The notes beneath the pieces were generated by a model. It worked only from the letters and a program-made list of their open reading frames with translations, was not told where the DNA came from and ran no database searches. Shown one piece after another: positions 430-10,859 of a DNA stretch of 20,000 nucleotides. Source of the DNA: an uncultured virus (IMG/VR IMGVR_UViG_3300028638_000009) (lineage: Duplodnaviria > Heunggongvirae > Uroviricota > Caudoviricetes); the IMG/VR virus record IMGVR_UViG_3300028638_000009; one strand, written 5' to 3'. Numbering within the stretch: the first letter of the stretch is position 1; every line of letters begins with the position of its first letter. A program made the translations under genes and the position numbers.

Positions 430-2757
430 TTATCCACATTTAGAGAATCCGCATGCCATGCATATACGACATCCTTCCGACAGGGTTAGTGTCTCCGCAC
501 ATCTTGGACACCTATTTGGGTCTGACGCGTACACTACTGGCGGCTCTAGTTGTTTGAAGATCACTTCTTCTCCATTAAATACCGGAGTCCAGGCGGGGGC
601 ATCTTTTATCTTGTATGATTGTGGCGAGATCTTTTCAGCATGTTTTACCAGCGCCTCAAGACTCTTTCCTATTGCATCCGGACAGGACAATACCCTCGTC
701 CCGTCTGGTTGTTTTCCTTGTGATTTGCCAGCTATAGTGGATAAGCATCTTATCCCCTTTAACTGGTCTATTACTTCGTTTACATCTACCCCTGACCTTA
801 GAGCCAGGGATATTAATCGTGCGGTTGCTTCGCTCTGTGAGGGACATCCACCTGATCTCCCAAGGTTGGTGAATACTTCACACGGACCGGACTCATCTGT
901 ATTAACTGTAACATACAGATTTCCGCATCCTATTTTTACCTTGTTTGTTTCTCCTACAGTTTTAGTCGGACGCTCCCGTTTTTCCGTTGGCTTTGATCCA
1001 CATGTGCATGATGCGCATCCACTTGAACATTCAATAGATGGAGATGCGTTGTTCGAAGTAGGTGCTACCGGCATAGTATGCAGTTTAGCAGGCTCTGACT
1101 TTATCTCGTTCAGAACCTGTTCATCTCTGGACCCATCCCGATACACCGTAAATCCTTTTACCCCTTCTTTCCACGCTCGGATTATTGTATTGCGAATATC
1201 TTCCCTTGTAGCAGAATTTGGGAGATTTATGGTTTTAGACACGGAATTGTCTACCTTAGATTGAACAGTGATGAGCATGCTCATATGTTCATCAGGGGTA
1301 ACCTGATCAGATGTTGGCCACACTTCTTTGCCACTGTATTTCAGGAATTTTCCCTTATTCTCCACCAATTCTTCCAGTATTTCTCGCTGTTCTGCCTCTG
1401 ATCGTGTGCGGAGAAAGTCGAGAAGGGACACGGGCATAATCTTAAGATTACCCATCTTAACGCTTTTTCTATCATATAGCGCACGGAAGTGAGGCTCTAT
1501 TCCACCCGAAGCTCCAGCCACTACACCAGTAGTTCCAGTAGGAGCTACCAATGTTAGCGTAGCATTCTTATAATCCATAGCTGCGCTGGAAGCACGGGCA
1601 TATCTGTTAAGGCTATCGAATATGTCTTTAGTGACTGCTATGGCAGCACTAGACCCATATCGTATCCCCATGGCAGACAGAGTATCAGCCAACCCCATCA
1701 CCCCCAAACCTATTTTACGACTAAGTTTGGTAGCTTTGTTTATTGCAGGAATTGGAGCTTCACTCTTATCGATAATGGAGTTTAGGAAGTCAACAGCATA
1801 CTCAACGTCAGCTTCCAGCTCTTTCCATTTTATAGTGCTCCGTAATTCCCCTTTATCCCAGAAGGGCACCACATACTTGTAAAGGTTCATGGCACCGAGG
1901 TTACATGATTCGTTTGGCAGTAAGAAAGTTTCTCCACACGGATTAGAAACTTCCAAACCTATGTTAAACTGCTCAAACAGCTTATTGTGACCTACAGTAC
2001 CGCTTCTGTTTACGGTGTCAATGAACTGCACACCCGGCTCGCCATTTCTCCAGGAGCAATCAACTATCGCATCCATTATTTCTTTTGGATTGATAGATGT
2101 TTCCTTGTCCCATCTTGGATGTGACAATCTGAAAGATGTACTTCCAGATAGATACGCTTCCATGAAGGCGTCTGTAATTGCAACACTGATGTTGAAATTA
2201 GAGACATCTCCTTCTTTCGTTTTACACCGTATAAATGACATAATATCAGGATGATCCACCCTGAGATTAGCCATGGCTGCCCCTCTGCGGGTCCCTCCCT
2301 GACGGACAGCCGCTATAATAGCGTCAAACACCTTCAAGAACGACAGTGGTCCGCTGGACACGCCCTTTGTCGTATGTACAGAACTTCCATCAGGTCTAAG
2401 ACGAGATAGGCTGACCCCAACTCCGCCGCCTTCCTTGAAGACCATAGCCATATCTCTAGCGGTGTTGAATATGCTCTCCATACTGTCTTCCAGAGGGAGC
2501 ACGAAACACGCTGCCAGAGACTTCATATGGGTTCCGGCATTCATCCAGCACGGTGAGTTCGGTACGAATTTCTTCTGACGAAGAATTTCCCTCATCCGAT
2601 CCCTTCTCGGTACTGACCAGTCTGAACATACATAGTTAGCAACGCGATTAACTATGTCTTCGAAGGAATTATCCCCCTCTTTAGCCCAGTAAGTCATGGC
2701 TACTTCATTTCCTACTGCATCCATGTCCAACGACATGATTTCCTTGATATCCATCAT
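430..2757 (-). CDS. nrdJ: Class II adenosylcobalamin-dependent ribonucleotide reductase with fused C-terminal TSCPD domain and Zn ribbon
   Basis: Motifs PNSP, ACFV, GGGVG, RQGGTRRGAAM, GEPG, NPCGE (thiyl Cys), SCNLG, APTGT, SKTIN and YRDGSRDEQVL. C-terminal SCPDAIG and CPRC...CMACGFSKCG. AAGGAG SD; the true start may be the second ATG at 2754. Confidence 0.93.
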   Translation of the reverse strand: MMDIKEIMSLDMDAVGNEVAMTYWAKEGDNSFEDIVNRVANYVCSDWSVPRRDRMREILRQKKFVPNSPCWMNAGTHMKSLAACFVLPLEDSMESIFNTARDMAMVFKEGGGVGVSLSRLRPDGSSVHTTKGVSSGPLSFLKVFDAIIAAVRQGGTRRGAAMANLRVDHPDIMSFIRCKTKEGDVSNFNISVAITDAFMEAYLSGSTSFRLSHPRWDKETSINPKEIMDAIVDCSWRNGEPGVQFIDTVNRSGTVGHNKLFEQFNIGLEVSNPCGETFLLPNESCNLGAMNLYKYVVPFWDKGELRSTIKWKELEADVEYAVDFLNSIIDKSEAPIPAINKATKLSRKIGLGVMGLADTLSAMGIRYGSSAAIAVTKDIFDSLNRYARASSAAMDYKNATLTLVAPTGTTGVVAGASGGIEPHFRALYDRKSVKMGNLKIMPVSLLDFLRTRSEAEQREILEELVENKGKFLKYSGKEVWPTSDQVTPDEHMSMLITVQSKVDNSVSKTINLPNSATREDIRNTIIRAWKEGVKGFTVYRDGSRDEQVLNEIKSEPAKLHTMPVAPTSNNASPSIECSSGCASCTCGSKPTEKRERPTKTVGETNKVKIGCGNLYVTVNTDESGPCEVFTNLGRSGGCPSQSEATARLISLALRSGVDVNEVIDQLKGIRCLSTIAGKSQGKQPDGTRVLSCPDAIGKSLEALVKHAEKISPQSYKIKDAPAWTPVFNGEEVIFKQLEPPVVYASDPNRCPRCAETLTLSEGCRICMACGFSKCG

Positions 2758-2763
2758 GTCTCC

Positions 2764-3066
2764 TTAGTCTCTTTTGTCCGTTGAAAACGCGCCCATTATA
2801 GATGACATTGCATCCGCCATCTCTTTCGTTGTTCTATCGTCTCTGACTTTCTTTTCTGACATCATTGCATCTGCGAAGTTATACGCAGTTTCTGCCATCT
2901 TCTTGGCATACGATCCGTTTTCGATCCCATCCTTAGTTATGAACTGCATAAGCTCAGGGTTAGCGTGCATGCCCATTGCGATAGCCGCGGCGAATACATC
3001 CCTTGGCATGAGAGCAATCTGCATAAATGATCCGTTAGACAACATCTTTGAAAATTCTTCCATCAT
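2764..3066 (-). CDS. Conserved small phage protein (RDxFAAxxM...AYxxADAM type)
   Basis: AAGGAG SD. PRDVFAAAIAMG...AETAYNFADAMM resembles a widespread phage hypothetical family, recognised by eye. Confidence 0.75.
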   Translation of the reverse strand: MMEEFSKMLSNGSFMQIALMPRDVFAAAIAMGMHANPELMQFITKDGIENGSYAKKMAETAYNFADAMMSEKKVRDDRTTKEMADAMSSIMGAFSTDKRD

Positions 3067-3080
3067 ACTTATTTCTCCTT

Positions 3081-3116
3081 AAAATAAAATGGACAGGTAT
3101 GATAGCATACCTGTCC
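3081..3116 (-). terminator. Hairpin/terminator between RNA ligase and the 100-aa gene
   Basis: 11-bp perfect stem GGACAGGTATG/CATACCTGTCC (3091-3116) with 4-nt loop, then ATTTTATTTT on the minus strand. Confidence 0.7.
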
Positions 3117-3140
3117 GAGGTTAGTCACTGGGTACGTTAA

Positions 3141-4349
3141 TTATTCTTCTTCGTCTTCTCCCTCGTATTTGAGGCTGAACTCAGGGTTAATGTACTTGAA
3201 CGATTTGAACATGTTTACCCTCTGATTTCCGAGTCGGCACACAAATCCTTCTGCGATTTGAGTTGGCAGCAGTCTTGACATGTGCCCCCATGGTCGGGTC
3301 TTTACCAGGGATTCTAGATCTTCCATGGATTTGCATTTTACGCCCAGATCCAATACTGGGACCATGTCCATAGGTATGTTGTGTACGAATAGCATCTTCT
3401 TTATTTCAGAAGGTGAGTACTCTACAACGTCATTTGAAGCACCTTTGCAGGTGATCTCTTTCAGATTGAACAGGTAAAATTTGTAGTCTTTCACCTTATA
3501 CTTGTTCTTCTGAATGTCAGGGCCTATGGTTTCTCCCTGGAGTACCAGATAGGTATTCGCGGGCAACTTCATGCTCTCATGCAGTCTTCGCATTATTTTA
3601 TTGGCAGAGCAGTTTTCAGCAGATTTCCACCACCATGACCCGTCATTGTGAACTTTGGTGAAGTTTCTGCTGCAGACCATGAAGGTTTCCCCCATCAACA
3701 GTTTCATCAACCAGTTATTCGGCCTGTAGATAAATGTAGTAGACGTTCCGTCAATCTTTTCTGTGAAATCAATTTCCCTGTCCACGAAGTTTGACTTCAT
3801 GCCATGTGACATGTTCTGCCATCTCTCTTCGTCAGTCTTGGATACGATGTGGGTGGGGAAATTACCCGCGCCGCGTCTACGCTGGAAGTATTTTCCAACG
3901 ATGGGAATACGGCGCAGCAATCGGATATACCACGGTGCTGGCTTGCCTGGAGTTTTAAGTCTGTTCGCTTCCTCACGTGCGGCTTCAGGATCGTATTTAG
4001 TAACCCCGATTACATCGCTGAGGTCTGTGCCAATTGCTGCATCAGTCTGGTACTGTGTAGGATCAATACCAAGTTCTTTCAGCATAGACAACGGCTTAGC
4101 CAGCCCCTGAGATATCTGCTTCATGCACTTAATTGTGCGCACACGATACTTACGTGGTTGCATGAAGTCAAACACGGCATGCTTCGGAAGTATGCTGTCG
4201 ATTTCGAAATATACACAGAGGGACCCAGGTTTGAATTCTCCCTTCTGGGCAACGCACTGCCACCCATCGATCATTACAAGCTCGATCTTGTCGGCTCCGG
4301 GTATTTCCACCACATTGTCAATCTTTCTTATTGTTGCTAGTTTTCTCAT
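3141..4349 (-). CDS. ATP-dependent RNA ligase, DRB0094/Rnl5-like, with N-terminal OB-fold
   Basis: N-terminus MRKLATIRKI...IPGADKIE...GWQCV.QKGEF...VYFEIDS. KTDEER; motif I TEKIDGTS; VCSRN; III LQGETIGPDIQKN; IIIa FYLFN; IV EGFV; V FKYIN. AAAGGAG SD. Confidence 0.9.
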   Translation of the reverse strand: MRKLATIRKIDNVVEIPGADKIELVMIDGWQCVAQKGEFKPGSLCVYFEIDSILPKHAVFDFMQPRKYRVRTIKCMKQISQGLAKPLSMLKELGIDPTQYQTDAAIGTDLSDVIGVTKYDPEAAREEANRLKTPGKPAPWYIRLLRRIPIVGKYFQRRRGAGNFPTHIVSKTDEERWQNMSHGMKSNFVDREIDFTEKIDGTSTTFIYRPNNWLMKLLMGETFMVCSRNFTKVHNDGSWWWKSAENCSANKIMRRLHESMKLPANTYLVLQGETIGPDIQKNKYKVKDYKFYLFNLKEITCKGASNDVVEYSPSEIKKMLFVHNIPMDMVPVLDLGVKCKSMEDLESLVKTRPWGHMSRLLPTQIAEGFVCRLGNQRVNMFKSFKYINPEFSLKYEGEDEEE

Positions 4350-4476
4350 ACGTCTCCTTTGTATCAGTATTTTTGTTCTTTGGGTCGGATAGAGTTATAT
4401 ATTTTGTCGTGTCATATGGATAACAGGTTAAACAGATATCCCCATCATACTCGTTACAGCATGTATTACAAATCAT
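4318..4476 (-). CDS. 52-aa Cys-rich Zn-finger-like microprotein (absent from ORF track)
   Basis: ATG overlaps the upstream stop (ATGA at 4476-4473) and has a GGAGG SD just upstream. Sequence MICNTCCNEYDGDICLTCYPYDTTKYITLSDPKNKNTDTKETYEKTSNNKKD*. Overlaps the ligase start. Confidence 0.65.
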   Translation of the reverse strand: MICNTCCNEYDGDICLTCYPYDTTKYITLSDPKNKNTDTKETYEKTSNNKKD

Positions 4477-4808
4477 ACAGCCTCCGTTAAGTCACCGACT
4501 TTTGTATCGCACTTACTGCAGAAAAGTTCAGATCCATCTCCACTTTGAATGACTTCTTCTGGGTCGTCTTCATAGGTACCCGTATCGCTTACTGGTTCTT
4601 TGCACTTAGGGCACCAGTAATAATCTGCGAGATTAACTTCTCTTGGAGCAGCCAGGGATGGCGCTCCGTGACTGTCAACCTCCTGCACTGTAAATCCAAG
4701 AGGCGGACTGTCCTTTGAGCGTATTGCTCTAGCTGCGTCTATAGCAGCGTCTATCGGAGATTTTGCGTCAATCAAGATATCCCATGTTACCAAATATTTT
4801 TTAGCCAT
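4473..4808 (-). CDS. Hypothetical phage protein with C-terminal Zn ribbon
   Basis: AAGGAG SD. YLVTWDILIDAKSPIDAA N-terminal motif and CPKC...CSKC. Overlaps neighbouring genes in operon fashion. Confidence 0.75.
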   Translation of the reverse strand: MAKKYLVTWDILIDAKSPIDAAIDAARAIRSKDSPPLGFTVQEVDSHGAPSLAAPREVNLADYYWCPKCKEPVSDTGTYEDDPEEVIQSGDGSELFCSKCDTKVGDLTEAV

Positions 4809-5862
4809 TAGCCCACTCCTTCGCTATTGCGTAAATTTTATCCATGTCTGCCCGCATCTTAATTTCGTCAGTTTCTGTGACTATAGCATCTTTTAGATCC
4901 CCATAGTGCGAGTCAAGAACTTCTATGAGTAGCTTCTTTATTGCGGCTTCATCCGGAGCATACCTCAACGAGGATGACTCATACAGTTTTGTAAGCGACG
5001 ATTCTTTTTCCTTGAAGTACTCTTCTATTTCAGAGAACTTCCAGTCTCCCCTTCGTATAGCCTTCAGCATTTCACGCCTGTCTTTACGGTCGAGTGTTAA
5101 TGTTCCATCCCGCAGTATTTCTTCAGCCTGGTCCATAAGGCGAACAACATGGTATGCAAATTTGGTGTCGTATCCGTGTATCTTGGTAGTTATCGCCCGT
5201 CTCTTCTCTTTTAATACGTTATTGAACAAGTTCGAATACCTAACAATAGCTTCAGGGGATTGGTCGGTATTTACCAAATGTGCAGCACCCTCTTCCAGTG
5301 AGGAAGTATGATGTATTCCATACTTGTCTTCAAATACTAAAAGATCATAAAGCACCGGCTCCGAATCACGCTTCTTACACTTATGTAGCTGTTGGTAGGC
5401 GTACCCTTTTAGTTTGTGCCACACACCTTTATGTAAAAATAAGTGGCGATTTTCCCGTACACGCTGCGCCACAGGACTGCAATGAAGTATGCAGTTTTCG
5501 GGAACAAACATAGAATCCAACATGTTGGGGTTATTTTCCATAACCAGATTGAAATATTTGCATACTCCGTATATGGACATATCGTATTCGCGGTTCTTGG
5601 TTGGGTCTTTTATGTGGTGCTGCTGCCACACTTCAAAGTTAGGAGGCTCTTTTCCGAACCCTCGAATATTACCAGCTAAATGGGGGAATGTCATATCTTT
5701 TGGGGGTATAGCCCATCCGTAGACATCCATGTCCGAGTAGTCTTCCGCTACTCCGTAAGCAACAGATCCCATCATTACCAGGTAATGGGTATTGTCGCGT
5801 AAAAAACTTGGAATTTCGTGGCCTTTTATTATTCCACGTTTCATTAGATCTTTTAACAGCAT
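4801..5862 (-). CDS. Pol-beta-superfamily nucleotidyltransferase (Nuc-transf/RlaP/T4 NrdC.11-like)
   Basis: GSVAYG...SDMDVYG catalytic signature; NNPNMLD; GYAYQQL; YDTKFAYHVVRL...G.L; LKAIRRG; S.L...PD. Confidence 0.85.
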   Translation of the reverse strand: MLLKDLMKRGIIKGHEIPSFLRDNTHYLVMMGSVAYGVAEDYSDMDVYGWAIPPKDMTFPHLAGNIRGFGKEPPNFEVWQQHHIKDPTKNREYDMSIYGVCKYFNLVMENNPNMLDSMFVPENCILHCSPVAQRVRENRHLFLHKGVWHKLKGYAYQQLHKCKKRDSEPVLYDLLVFEDKYGIHHTSSLEEGAAHLVNTDQSPEAIVRYSNLFNNVLKEKRRAITTKIHGYDTKFAYHVVRLMDQAEEILRDGTLTLDRKDRREMLKAIRRGDWKFSEIEEYFKEKESSLTKLYESSSLRYAPDEAAIKKLLIEVLDSHYGDLKDAIVTETDEIKMRADMDKIYAIAKEWANG

Positions 5863-6212: not shown

Positions 6213-6234
6213 AAAAAAAGGGGCCGAAGCCCCT
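6213..6234 (-). terminator. Intrinsic terminator with C(UUCG)G tetraloop
   Basis: Minus strand reads AGGGGC-TTCG-GCCCCT-TTTTTT, just after the stop of the 478-aa gene. Confidence 0.9.
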
Positions 6235-6240
6235 AGGAGT

Positions 6241-7677
6241 TTAGTTTGACCCCAGGTCAAGGAGCAATGCGCGCATTCTGTTGACAGTGTCCAACTTTCT
6301 GCGGGCCCAGTCCTTGGCCTGAGGAGTAGAATTTGGATGGCTTATGACCTTGTGATAGTAGAATTCCAGAAGTCCTATTCCGGAGCTTGTTGTGGCGACG
6401 CAGTCTTTGAACTGGATGCCGCCTGTTGATATCCTCAACTGCTCTGCAGGTTTTTCCTGTTTAGCCTTTGAATGTACGTTTGTAAATATCATATTTACTG
6501 CTGATTCTGCTGCAGAGTTCTTACTTGTGACTACTTCTGGAGGAGTTTTAACGGATTCTTTATCCGACTTCTCTTCCGACTTTTCCCTAATCTTCCTCGT
6601 ATAGGTTGAGCTGTTCTTTTTAGGGTTATAGTACTTTGTCGGTACTCCAGCCGCCTGATCTATCTTATAATGTGCTGAAGCTATGGATATGAATGATATC
6701 TTCGCTATCCTTGATACTGGAATTCCCAGATTCTTGTGAAGGTGTACTACGTAATCTGACAGGAATTTAGTGGTTGCCAGATCCTTACGCAGCCATACCA
6801 ATTTATCGGGAGTAGTTTCCAGCTTCTTCAAGAATACCTGTATTTCATCCTCGGTATATCTCTTCCCGGATTTTCCAGTGAATTCTGCATAGGGATCCGG
6901 CTCTTCCGATTCGTTATCATCATCCTGGTGTTCTTCAGCCAATCTGTCTATCACAGAATCCAGGAAGTCTGACTGAGTAGCGGGCTTGGCAGAAGATTCT
7001 GTAGTATCAGGAGTGAACAGCATGTCAAAGACTGGTTCGAGTATTTCAATAGTGGCTGCGGATGTTTTATTGTCGTTCACAAGCTCTAAAGCTGTGGTAT
7101 ACAGTGCATCATTTTTTCTAATAATGCCTGCTATTGACTCCACAGTTCTAGCCTTAGAAGCATCCAATAAAGACTTCAATGAAATGTTGGAGTAGTCTTC
7201 CGTAATTATAACTCTTGATAATGCCCACTTGTACCACAACATTAATATAGGTCTTGGTATTACGGAATACCCTAAAGTGGCTGCCTCTAGATGCATTAAA
7301 GTTTCGGCCTGTGATGGCGTGATAACTTTAATCTCGGCGCGTCTAGTAAGCTCATCACGAAGCCTATCTGCTGCTCCAGGATCTTCATCCATCCTAATAA
7401 TTAGGTCCCTTATGTCATCTTTAGATATCTGGTATCCGCTTCTGTTATAAATCCCGGAATATGTATTTTCATTAAGCTTTTTAGTCAGTTTTGACATTAA
7501 GCTATATCTGCCAATACGTGATTGGTACGATGCTGAAGACTCGCTAGAATCTAATATATCAGGGCAATCTTCATAGTTTACTTTAGACGTTAATTCCCCA
7601 CCTATTATGTGGTTACATACTAACAAGGACTCAATCTGAATTGATTCTACCAGTTTCTTGTTATTCAAGTCAAACAT
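6241..7677 (-). CDS. Hypothetical 478-aa protein with acidic linker and HTH-like segment (possible DNA-binding protein)
   Basis: GGAG SD. VVHLHKNLGIPVSRIAKISFISIASAHYKIDQA resembles a helix-turn-helix and is followed by a basic patch. The CDS is well supported; the function is inferred. Confidence 0.7.
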   Translation of the reverse strand: MFDLNNKKLVESIQIESLLVCNHIIGGELTSKVNYEDCPDILDSSESSASYQSRIGRYSLMSKLTKKLNENTYSGIYNRSGYQISKDDIRDLIIRMDEDPGAADRLRDELTRRAEIKVITPSQAETLMHLEAATLGYSVIPRPILMLWYKWALSRVIITEDYSNISLKSLLDASKARTVESIAGIIRKNDALYTTALELVNDNKTSAATIEILEPVFDMLFTPDTTESSAKPATQSDFLDSVIDRLAEEHQDDDNESEEPDPYAEFTGKSGKRYTEDEIQVFLKKLETTPDKLVWLRKDLATTKFLSDYVVHLHKNLGIPVSRIAKISFISIASAHYKIDQAAGVPTKYYNPKKNSSTYTRKIREKSEEKSDKESVKTPPEVVTSKNSAAESAVNMIFTNVHSKAKQEKPAEQLRISTGGIQFKDCVATTSSGIGLLEFYYHKVISHPNSTPQAKDWARRKLDTVNRMRALLLDLGSN

Positions 7678-7710
7678 TTTCTTTCTCCAATGAAATAATT
7701 TTTGATTTTT

Positions 7711-8086
7711 GGTCGAAAATGGGGTTAATGTGCAATGGTCTCTGAAAAAAGGTTGTACCGTTCTTGCGCCATCAAATATAGCCCAAACTAGCTCCTAGAA
7801 ATTGAGAGCGATAGGCTGAAGATGGTACAAAAATCAAAGTGATGGTGCAATTGGCCTTACGGGGAATTCGATAAGCATATATAGAGAATTTTAATAATAA
7901 AACTAAAAAACCTCTAATAAGTGAATTGAAATCCCCGTAACAACAAATGCACCGACATTTTGTACGCTGCACCAGTTTTTATTGCACTGAAATTGGCAAC
8001 TGGATTAGCTAAGAGATGTTTTAAAATCATCTCGTGGTGTACAACCTTTTTTTACCCACCGTTACACAAACGGGTAACTTCCGACC
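7711..8086. repeat. Large degenerate palindrome (nested inverted repeats sharing centre 7898/7899)
   Basis: Paired islands all have coordinate sum 15797: 7711-7715/8082-8086, 7729-7739/8058-8068, 7745-7758/8039-8052 (14/14), 7823-7829/7968-7974, 7844-7853/7944-7953 and 7857-7872/7925-7940. Confidence 0.85.
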
Positions 8087-8142
8087 GGCTGGTCATGAAA
8101 ATGTGTGCTTTCCGCACATTCATATTCAGGATCACTTTATAT

Positions 8143-8150
8143 CTTATACC
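8143..8150 (-). promoter_or_regulatory. Putative promoter motif GGTATAAG (copy 3), pointing into the palindrome
   Basis: Same 8-mer as 357-364 and 6204-6211. No SD-led ORF seen nearby downstream. Confidence 0.5.
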
Positions 8151-8206
8151 CTAAAGATGTGTGAAAAAAGCACAAATTATAAGGTAATATATTAAGATAT
8201 ATCAAG

Positions 8207-8911
8207 TTAGGATATAAATACACTAAGTTTAGCTGACCAGATAGTTTTTACTATACTTTCTAATGAATTCACCGGTCTTACTATTTTTGATATTCTATTC
8301 GTATCAGATGATATATTATCTGCTAAACAATGCTCAACTGTATAAACATCACATATATCGTCAATTAATAGACCAGGATTGGTAGCTAGTAGCGACTGTA
8401 ACTTTTTAAATATTCTGTATTTTGCAGCAGCTATTACATTATACAGCGCGTTTATTCTGCTTATAGATACGTTAACATCCTCATCCATTATAAGCTTATA
8501 GCTATCTGGAGACACTGAGACAGATGTCAACATATCTATAGCCAGAGAGCCATCAATGTCCTCCACTATGTATGCTAGCTTCATGTATCTTGCTGGATTG
8601 TGGAATATTGATTTAAGCCATTTCAAATAGTGGCTGCCCAATAGTTTTATGTCCACTTTTCTATGTGAATCTATATTTGGATAAAATCCTAGCATTGCTA
8701 TACTAGCTCCAGCCAGTATACCCTCTATAAAATCGTCATCTGATAGCGATGATTTTATATTTTCGAATAAACTCTTTATTCCCATTTTACACGCCTTTAT
8801 TACATACTCCTCCTTGTGCTCTCCTATATAAAAATTAGTGTATAGCCTAGTTCTAGACTGTACGAGCACGCAGGCTTTATCTTTTTTTCGGATCTGTATT
8901 TGATCTGGCAT
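8207..8911 (-). CDS. Hypothetical protein (~234 aa, AT-rich gene)
   Basis: Long ORF. AGAGGT SD before the ATG at 8911 (MPDQIQIRKK...) fits better than the 8938 start. No recognisable motif. Confidence 0.7.
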   Translation of the reverse strand: MPDQIQIRKKDKACVLVQSRTRLYTNFYIGEHKEEYVIKACKMGIKSLFENIKSSLSDDDFIEGILAGASIAMLGFYPNIDSHRKVDIKLLGSHYLKWLKSIFHNPARYMKLAYIVEDIDGSLAIDMLTSVSVSPDSYKLIMDEDVNVSISRINALYNVIAAAKYRIFKKLQSLLATNPGLLIDDICDVYTVEHCLADNISSDTNRISKIVRPVNSLESIVKTIWSAKLSVFIS

Positions 8912-8961
8912 GTGTTTACCTCTATAAATAATTAACATTGATGTGACTAAATGTCAATTGT

Positions 8962-8990
8962 TTGACATAGGTAATGACGTAAGGTATTAT
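8962..8990 (+). promoter_or_regulatory. Sigma70-type promoter of the structural operon
   Basis: TTGACA (8962-8967), 17-bp spacer, TATTAT (8985-8990). Confidence 0.7.
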
Positions 8991-8996
8991 ACGTAT

Positions 8997-10859
8997 ATGG
9001 CAAAAGAATACAATGTTGACTACATATGGGATTCCCTGGCAGACTTCTGGAAGCTCTTTGAAGACGCACCAGTAGTGGATCAGCTGTGGAGAGGTTATGT
9101 ATTTACCGTTAATAACCTGTATTACCAGCTATACCAGTTAAATTTATCAAAGTGTATCCACACTATTCCTTATAAATGGATATCTGATTGGGAAGTGTTC
9201 GTACTAAACGACGATACTTCTATAGGGTATTACGATGATAATAGGGTATTTAACTTAAATACAAAAATAGTATTGACTGAAGCTGAGCGAGAGGTTGTTA
9301 CGGCATTGGGCGGCAACTACATGTACCCAGACTATCCGTACGTATTCAGATTGCCATATGGAGTAAAAAACGTAACTCAGCTAAATGAGTCTCCTAGAGA
9401 GACAGTAATGCTCCCAAACAACACCATGCTGTCTCCAGATAACGTATTAATTTTACCTGACAATACAGAAAGATATCTCGGAGATAATTTGTATTATCCA
9501 GAAGAGGTTGTGGAATGGGACGACTATCTCGTGTTCCCAAAAGGAATAACAGTTGACACTGTTAAGATGTTCCCTAATAGTGACTTCATAGTTAACGAAG
9601 TAGCTAGAACTATACATTTTAAGCGCAAGCCATATGAATTAATGTGGTCAAATCTAGCTATACGCGATTTGGAAATGATATATGACAACTTTGGAGTATT
9701 GCTTAAATACTATAAACCAGATTCATATAAATATTTAAGAGAAGTGCAGGGACTATGGTTCGCATACTGGAACGGAGCAGCCGTAGCCAATATAGAGATA
9801 GGATTGAATATACTTAGAGATCTACCATTTGTATCGGAAGATGGTGTAGTAGAAAAAGTATCTACTGTCGATAGTATAGCCACGATAGGGGATAACGACG
9901 TATTTGTAACTAAATCACAGTATGAGCTGCTAACAGTAGGTAAGGAAGTCTCGTATGTGAACGCAGAATCTGGCGTCATTAAAGTGGGCCAAAATTATAT
10001 AAGAATATCTCCAGATGACGCCGCTAACATATCTGTAGGGGACGCCATAGTAGACAAAAAGCTGCCCACAGTGTCTATACAAATAAGTGGGTCTAAGTAC
10101 GACTTTACGGGAGAATCCACCGTATCTGTGGCAGTTGGAGAATTTGTTCCCAAATTCATGCCACTCACCAATGCTATAGGCGTGTACGATTATATAAACT
10201 ATCCTGGATGGTGGAGAGAATATGTAGGCGGATACTACGATAATTTTGAAACCTGCTTAAATATTGGTGGGGCCTACTTTGACACCACTTTCTTCGACTC
10301 CGGAATATTTGACGCTATGGATTCAAATAGATGTCTGGAAGCACTATTCCTGCAATACTTTACCTTTCTGGTAAAGATAGACAGCTCTGCGTGGTTCTGC
10401 AGCAGGGCAGACCTTGAAGTAGTAATTGCCTTCTTGCACGCCATAAAACCTGCATATACTCATTTCCTGTTTCAATTTGATTTAATGTTGCAAGATGACA
10501 CAGTTACGCATGATTCTGAATTTAGGTTTAAAGACTGGAACTATTGTCCTAAGGACATTCCGTTAGATCATCATCATTTTGACATGGAAGTTATACACCC
10601 AAATTTTGATGATGGCAGCTACTTTGATTTTGACAAAGAGCGGGATTACTTATGTATATCCGTATTCGGTAGTCCACACATTTTCGAGGATGATATAGTT
10701 ACTGGATACACATTTGATGATATTGCTGTTGTAGACTTTGATTACCATAGAGTACCGTGGGATTCTGATCCGCTATCAGATGGATTTTACCTGGATATGA
10801 CCAGAAAGATACCTGAAGACTTGAACTTTGCGGATAAACATACTACACTTGACAAGTAA
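8997..10859 (+). CDS. Putative baseplate wedge/tail structural protein
   Basis: C-terminal LHAIKPAYTHF resembles the KPAHT motif of P2 gpI/baseplate wedge proteins. Acidic FD-rich tail; first gene of the tail cluster. ATG 8997 is preferred because the annotated start (8943) would overlap the promoter. Confidence 0.65.
   Translation: MAKEYNVDYIWDSLADFWKLFEDAPVVDQLWRGYVFTVNNLYYQLYQLNLSKCIHTIPYKWISDWEVFVLNDDTSIGYYDDNRVFNLNTKIVLTEAEREVVTALGGNYMYPDYPYVFRLPYGVKNVTQLNESPRETVMLPNNTMLSPDNVLILPDNTERYLGDNLYYPEEVVEWDDYLVFPKGITVDTVKMFPNSDFIVNEVARTIHFKRKPYELMWSNLAIRDLEMIYDNFGVLLKYYKPDSYKYLREVQGLWFAYWNGAAVANIEIGLNILRDLPFVSEDGVVEKVSTVDSIATIGDNDVFVTKSQYELLTVGKEVSYVNAESGVIKVGQNYIRISPDDAANISVGDAIVDKKLPTVSIQISGSKYDFTGESTVSVAVGEFVPKFMPLTNAIGVYDYINYPGWWREYVGGYYDNFETCLNIGGAYFDTTFFDSGIFDAMDSNRCLEALFLQYFTFLVKIDSSAWFCSRADLEVVIAFLHAIKPAYTHFLFQFDLMLQDDTVTHDSEFRFKDWNYCPKDIPLDHHHFDMEVIHPNFDDGSYFDFDKERDYLCISVFGSPHIFEDDIVTGYTFDDIAVVDFDYHRVPWDSDPLSDGFYLDMTRKIPEDLNFADKHTTLDK

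Follow-up and report, generated by a model that had tools for sequence, protein, structure and literature searches.

A pseudo-symmetric intergenic element of a sludge phage consists of two nested stems with local side hairpins and is most likely maintained as a folded single strand

The long degenerate palindrome at positions 7711-8086 of the stretch studied here, 20,000 nucleotides from an uncultured virus assigned to the Caudoviricetes (the window; IMG/VR record IMGVR_UViG_3300028638_000009), consists of two nested stems with local side hairpins, and natural selection most likely maintains base pairing within one strand of it. The fold is kept in natural variants and one of its pairs has changed in a compensatory manner, which argues for selection on a folded single strand and not only on symmetric duplex sites. 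We tentatively interpret the element as a structured domain of RNA that is either leader to the adjacent gene for a 478-aa protein or antisense to it, a reading in which we place slightly less than even confidence. As a structured non-coding element it is new and of a single locus, though its general kind is known; its pseudo-two-fold layout is unusual, and Rfam contains no relative.

The symmetry of the element clearly exceeds chance. At 7711-8086 it is gapless around a single centre (coordinate sum 15797), and 95 of the 188 columns are Watson-Crick matches, with 19 further columns being G/T. Among all approximately 39,000 symmetry centres in the window the mean score was 47.8 (sd 6.2) and the second-ranked centre reached 72. 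When the region 7400-8400 was shuffled 300 times with its dinucleotides preserved, the top-scoring centre reached 72.3 on average (sd 2.2) and 82 at most; 95 was never attained. The original prediction of a gapless symmetry over 188-bp arms thus withstood the shuffle test that it had proposed; its six island pairs were all located at the one centre, and the centre at 7887-7910, which it had described as almost pure A/T, contains 23 A/T among 24 bases. The signal, however, is not spread over six islands. It is carried by an outer helix (7711-7759/8038-8086; 32/49 columns Watson-Crick), which includes the perfect 14-mer 7745-7758/8039-8052, and by an inner helix (7835-7872/7925-7962; 29/38 columns), in which 7857-7872/7925-7940 likewise lies on the common centre. 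The spacers between the two helices (7760-7834 and 7963-8037), each 75 nt in length, match each other at 22/75 positions, which is chance level, so that the proposed pair TGGTACA/TGCACCA is probably incidental. Mismatches of the wobble type on both strands were found as predicted, with seven G/T and four A/C columns in the two helices.

Both strands of the element are predicted to fold far better than shuffled sequence. Using RNA parameters, the MFE was -128.4 kcal/mol for the plus strand (z -6.25) and -128.1 kcal/mol for the minus strand (z -7.95), and in neither case was any of 100 shuffles as good; DNA parameters gave -60.7 for the plus strand (z -4.54). In the MFE structures of both strands an outer stem closes a junction from which a left, a long central and two right hairpins emanate:

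7711-8086, either strand: whole pseudo-symmetric element, a five-helix branched fold in the MFE prediction
7709-7759: left half of the outer helix P1, containing the perfect 14-mer; pairs with 8037-8088
8037-8088: right half of the outer helix P1
7764-7830: left side branch P2, a local hairpin in which the pairs 7782/7815 (compensatory) and 7779/7818 are located
7835-7962: central hairpin P3, formed by the inner inverted repeat and ending in the A/T-rich tip
7966-8009: right side branch P4, a local hairpin with the pair 7968/8007
8012-8034: variable hairpin P5; in the related contig L001 the stem persists, with a different pair at its top and a lengthened loop

The sequence between the islands had been regarded as diverged. 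This holds for the match of one arm to the other, but the spacers fold on themselves as local hairpins, and the chance-level match together with this self-folding identifies them as local structure. At the gathering score no family of Rfam 15 was found in the whole window. The E-value mode returned 12 matches, all far below their cut-offs, ten of them to generic long-hairpin, miRNA-precursor or sRNA models, one to a snoRNA and one to a retroviral 3'UTR element; the best was a generic long-hairpin model with 29.7 bits, where 228.9 are needed. A scan of the window for tRNA and tmRNA genes found none.

The sole relative obtained was L001, a 7.5-kb contig from a sludge metagenome, which shares 96.9% identity with the window along a 3.6-kb block that contains the intergenic gap, and about 90% further left. 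A variant from a DNA run, X10, differs by seven substitutions and by an additional A at the tip of the central hairpin; apart from this single A after 7904, the A/T-rich tip is identical in the window, L001 and X10. L001 differs from the window at 18 positions of the element (18/376; counted in 7700-8100), and in comparison with 3.1% across the 3.6-kb block the element is no better conserved than its flanks. Both variants keep or improve the folding energy of the window, in contrast to most random mutants (n = 330), in which changes equal in number and type were placed at random. The plus strand of L001 reached an MFE of -134.7 kcal/mol vs. -115.6 (sd 7.0) for the random mutants, 0.6% of which were as good, and its minus strand -128.5 vs. 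-111.4 kcal/mol (sd 7.2; 0.9% as good). The corresponding values for X10 were -132.2 vs. -118.6 (sd 5.0; 0.9%) on the plus strand and -127.9 vs. -117.2 (sd 5.3; 2.1%) on the minus strand. This energy result could partly reflect a simple conservation of the arms.

The changes at individual pairs go beyond the arms. In P2, the pair 7782/7815, which lies outside the global symmetry, is C-G in the window, U.G in L001 and U-A in X10. On the plus strand, the pairs 7779/7818 and 7843/7954 change from U.G to C-G, and the pairs 7857/7940 and 7968/8007 from A-U to G.U. In P5, GAGATG-9-CATCTC of the window corresponds to GAGATA-11-TATCTC in L001, by which the stem is maintained and the loop lengthened. 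Given that the structures were predicted from the same three close sequences (about 95-98% identity) that provide the covariation data, the pair counts lean towards structure: in the plus strand consensus of 130 pairs, five one-sided changes and one two-sided change stay paired and three break, two of the latter in P5, which re-forms in a new register. When the window is compared with L001 alone, six of 125 pairs change and all six remain paired. A second X10 record diverges after 7940, with 9/30 positions changed in the 3' arm of P3; the 5' arm was not recovered. The original prediction had preferred symmetry at the level of the DNA duplex over a folded strand; the compensatory change in a side hairpin and the preserved folding energy point to the latter.

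The two strands are favoured by different observations, and their folding energies are nearly equal in the window. The substitution pattern favours the plus strand, on which six of the variable consensus pairs are kept and three broken, as opposed to two kept and six broken on the minus strand; P5 accounts for two broken pairs on each, and without it the counts are six to one and two to four. Several wobbles of the plus strand would be C.A mismatches on the minus strand. The minus strand is favoured by its thermodynamic z-score and by its outermost 10 bp (8086-8077 with 7711-7720), an uninterrupted helix that contains two G.U pairs; in L001 one of these is replaced by A-U.

The element is located within a 529-bp gap (7678-8206) between two orphan genes of the minus strand encoding 478 and 243 aa. 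The left part of the window carries genes for a ribonucleotide reductase, an RNA ligase and a RlaP-type nucleotidyltransferase on the minus strand, and from 8943 onwards structural and tail-fibre genes follow on the plus strand. The switch in gene orientation, which had been placed about 1 kb away, indeed lies at 8938/8943, at a distance of about 0.85-1.2 kb from the element. Along the minus strand, the divergent promoters are followed by the 243-aa gene, a promoter-like site, a weak hairpin, the element, the Shine-Dalgarno sequence with the 478-aa gene, and a terminator; a candidate signal of the plus strand is given last:

8928-8990, both strands: divergent sigma-70-like promoters at the early/late switch, TTGACA-18-AATTAT on the minus and TTGACA-17-TATTAT on the plus strand
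8207-8938, minus strand: 243-aa orphan gene upstream of the element, the real start of which is probably 8911
8176-8205, minus strand: promoter-like site TTGATA-18-TATAAT (11/12 match), directly after the stop codon of the 243-aa gene
8104-8118, minus strand: weak terminator-like hairpin between the 243-aa gene and the element, with five pairs and the tail CATTTTCATG
6241-7677, minus strand: 478-aa orphan gene directly downstream of the element, with the Shine-Dalgarno sequence GGAG at 7685-7688
6219-6234, minus strand: strong intrinsic terminator that ends the transcription unit of the 478-aa gene, with six pairs, five of them G-C, followed by T7
7691-7699, plus strand: candidate extended -10 TGnAATAAT, recognized by eye, with a weak -35 and absent from the scanner list

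The promoter-like site at 8176-8205 is a consensus match only, and the scan returned 11 sites where 8.3 are expected. It listed no site inside 7711-8086 and none in the interval that separates the element from the 478-aa start. A Shine-Dalgarno sequence (GGAG or GAGG) precedes 10 of the 16 ORFs of the window, and this usage together with the canonical terminators makes signals of the sigma-70 type relevant to the host. Because the 478-aa gene has its own Shine-Dalgarno sequence and terminator and no promoter-like site intervenes, leftward transcription must cross at least part of the element. The mRNA of the 478-aa gene must accordingly begin within the element or upstream of it, and a minus strand RNA very likely exists. 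On the opposite strand, the candidate extended -10 would direct transcription from near 7706, at the element's left margin. Five contigs from three RNA libraries have a depth of 2-3.4, carry no strand information and may derive from DNA; X16 covers 7078-7332 and 7712-7873, X17 covers 7408-7558 and 7830-7980, and X19 covers 8629-8787, so that coding sequence and element are spanned alike. The contig beginning at 7712, near the candidate plus strand start, is a single low-depth record. Four runs, represented by contigs, which could not reveal such features, showed no joints, termini or ends of molecules. Judged from the substitutions, the gap 7678-8206 is non-coding: three small ORFs within it were rejected as genes, since substitutions fall mostly at first and second codon positions (6 of 8 in the 66-aa ORF).

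Several features of the surroundings were observed in passing. The divergent promoters (8928-8999) share a small palindrome, ATGTCAA..TTGACAT, and the one on the plus strand would start transcription at about 8997, which is the position of an in-frame ATG of the 638-aa ORF; by this coincidence the gene may be leaderless and shorter than with the listed GTG start at 8943. The probable start of the 243-aa ORF at 8911 stands beside an Atlas record that begins at residue 10. The hairpin at 8100-8125, GTGTGC-TTTCC-GCACA(T), may act as a weak terminator in both directions; L001 is 100% identical to the window throughout 8079-8260, a stretch that includes it. Towards the start of the 478-aa gene (7045-7643 in the window, 3592-4223 in L001), about 630 bp are without nucleotide similarity between the two. 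This stretch begins about 12 codons into the gene, 67 nt from the element, and is flanked by sequence of 90-97% identity. The three known versions of the protein share 56-58% identity overall, and on the nucleotide comparison the dissimilar start gives the impression of a hypervariable N-terminal module that has been swapped, or of a junction left by recombination. An RNA-repair and nucleotide-metabolism cluster occupies 430-5862 on the minus strand, encoding a class II-like ribonucleotide reductase with a TSCPD domain, a PHA02142-type RNA ligase, the RlaP-type nucleotidyltransferase and a small zinc-ribbon protein. The 100-aa ORF at 2764-3066 gave a very weak match to an RNase III domain (E 0.22), below the threshold.

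Neither the 478-aa nor the 243-aa protein matched a Pfam (also at relaxed E-values), PHROG or PDB profile. Among 1.84 billion representatives, the 478-aa protein found only its own cluster (P0003) and one weak relative. In the ESM Atlas the flanking proteins returned weak sigma- or HTH-like structural rows with TM values of 0.23 or less, and an AlphaFold model of a flanking protein was unusable (pLDDT 39.3). Likewise, no relative was retrieved from INPHARED (searched by blastn with the element and by tblastn with both flanking proteins), from IMG/VR (protein scans with three proteins, alignment A1, and three exact DNA patterns), from the GTDB representative genomes (protein alignment and exact DNA pattern) or from PLSDB (blastn with the element). 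The 20-kb window, part of a genome of approximately 85 kb, contains the element only once. The RNA ligase of the window has relatives only at 33% identity or less, in unrelated phages. A generic, non-exhaustive literature search found no description of a comparable phage element. The region 7000-9000 or close variants of it are present in 20 of the 24 runs listed, which stem from activated sludge, wastewater, biosolids and bioreactors in 15 studies between 2019 and 2025; this occurrence indicates that the phage lineage is widespread in such plants, although the scans of IMG/VR and INPHARED did not find it.

A conserved, single-copy fold of about 380 nt would most likely act as RNA. If the minus strand is the functional one, the element would form the 5' leader in the mRNA of the 478-aa gene; if it is the plus strand, it would be an antisense transcript starting near 7706. 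In either case we infer a cis control of the 478-aa gene, which may be exerted by processing or stabilization of the message at the long duplex or by sense/antisense control. The near-continuous helix of about 30 bp would be a plausible substrate for an RNase III-type enzyme. The equal spacers and the strict absence of gaps find no explanation in the RNA model, and a fold that tolerates G.T could equally be one of single-stranded DNA, as the z-score with DNA parameters illustrates. It is also conceivable, albeit unlikely, that both strands are functional, either as a leader RNA, about 400 nt long, that is paired with an antisense RNA, or as the two DNA strands of an origin opened by transcription. 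They would form mirror-image five-helix folds, with a ColE1-like sense/antisense control of replication or of early-gene timing in a lytic tailed phage, based on a large RNA fold that is new and lacks a counterpart in Rfam. Such a mechanism would cover together the equal energies of the strands, the wobbles on both of them, the gapless symmetry and the A/U-rich tip.

A replication origin or an origin-associated element, in which the A/T centre unwinds and a folded strand serves initiation as an RNA primer precursor, a displaced DNA strand or extruded hairpins, is possible but doubtful. It would be in line with the A/T-rich core, the proximity to the divergent promoters of the early/late switch and the conservation of the fold on both strands, which a sense/antisense mechanism or one using both DNA strands would lead one to expect. 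The 11/12 promoter-like site upstream of a non-coding stretch resembles the layout of PE1 and a non-coding transcript in c2-type origins (PMC7150918). The minimum of the cumulative GC skew at 8501-9000, for which the original prediction had suggested a search, was indeed found, but it coincides with the switch in gene orientation, with 20 kb visible, and is thus not independent evidence. Moreover, the element lies one gene away from the divergence point, no initiator, helicase or primase family was recognized in the flanking genes, and instead of an iteron array there are only two-copy direct repeats, the best candidate being one of 10 nt (GATGGTACAA/GATGGTGCAA, 20 nt apart). Phage records (INPHARED) and plasmid records (PLSDB) showed no similarity to the element in sequence. 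Of the suggested protein-binding sites around an unwinding core, the A/T core is real and an origin possible, above all one primed by a transcript or making use of hairpins, but a folded single strand fits the variants better.

A symmetric duplex-DNA platform, with phased half-sites for dimeric or multimeric proteins of resolution, inversion, partition or packaging, would account for the gapless symmetry, for spacers of exactly equal length and for wobble-type mismatches on both strands. Only one of the eight substitutions in the arms of L001 falls into a Watson-Crick column, although 61/87 arm columns are of this type, and conserved half-sites would predict this rarity as well. They would not predict the compensatory and wobble-preserving changes in the side hairpins (7782/7815, 7779/7818, 7968/8007) or the re-registered P5, in which a half-site spacing of 9 becomes 11. 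None of the 16 ORFs in the window matched a recombinase, ParB, terminase or protelomerase family, the orientation is one and the same in all three assemblies, and the contigs showed no joints; we consider such a platform very unlikely. The proposals of a telomere, resolution or packaging site found no support. A hairpin telomere of the telRL/protelomerase kind was rejected at 50.5% Watson-Crick columns and with no protelomerase family found among the ORFs, and an inverton because of the constant orientation, contigs without strand-changing joints and the lack of a match to a recombinase family. We see only a slim chance that the element is a selfish or relic palindromic insertion similar to MITE or ERIC sequences, with no function for the phage and a fold kept from past mobility or for stability. 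Its size, its imperfect palindrome over the whole length and its intergenic site just after a terminator-like hairpin are in agreement with this origin; however, no other copy was detected in the window, IMG/VR, GTDB representatives, phages or plasmids, no target-site duplication is visible at 7710/8087, and the element occupies the same site in all three strains seen, with no empty site found.

If the element acts as RNA, as we tentatively prefer, an unusually symmetric element of about 380 nt from no described family would join the short list of big phage non-coding RNAs, and its fold would be tied to an orphan gene in which strains have swapped the N-terminal third. Should the element be an origin, it would show where replication starts in a sludge phage lineage without cultured relatives, and initiation that depends on a transcript or a hairpin would no longer be limited to the lactococcal c2 group. 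In both cases the element demonstrates that a long gapless degenerate palindrome can consist of two nested helices with local hairpins, and that duplex sites can be told from a folded strand by testing the non-symmetric parts for covariation.

Among known systems, the RNase III processing hairpins of phages T7 (R1-R5) and lambda (N leader) are single hairpins of about 50-60 nt. The element shares with them the position of an imperfect intercistronic duplex between two genes of an early operon; in contrast to these sites, it is branched in its predicted fold and measures about 380 nt. RNA II and RNA I of ColE1 constitute a primer and antisense pair from a non-coding region with multiple stem-loops in which both strands fold. 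This folding of two strands is matched by the nearly equal energies of the element, whereas ColE1 is a plasmid system and the element shows no Rfam homology to it. With the Frpo/ssi sequences of conjugative plasmids, the element has in common a long imperfect hairpin of about 300 nt upstream of a gene, and the plus strand favoured by the substitutions would be the template strand of the 478-aa gene. Entry into the cell in single-stranded form is not known for tailed dsDNA phages. The defining feature of Frpo, according to PMC11541004, is that -35 and -10 hexamers are rebuilt inside the stem. By eye, the right arms of the element offer a -35-like match of 4-5/6 but only 2-3/6 at the position of the -10; no such hexamers are rebuilt in its stem, and a promoter of this kind was rejected.

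The origin of the lactococcal Ceduovirus (c2) group is similar in that a non-coding region of several hundred bp lies near the divergence of early and late genes and is preceded by an early-type promoter. The available sections of PMC7150918 describe an origin layout with the early promoter PE1 and a non-coding transcript, PE1-T, and report that the length and structure of the transcript matter for this transcript-dependent origin; they contain no description of a pseudo-two-fold symmetry as found here. Unlike the c2 origin, with which it shares no sequence similarity, the element is separated from the divergence point by one gene and is accompanied not by two flanking early promoters but by a single promoter-like site (8205-8176, 11/12), no second one having been found. 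From ROOL and GOLLD the element differs in that it reaches no Rfam gathering score and has no tRNAs nearby, but like them it is a large structured non-coding candidate in environmental phage DNA.
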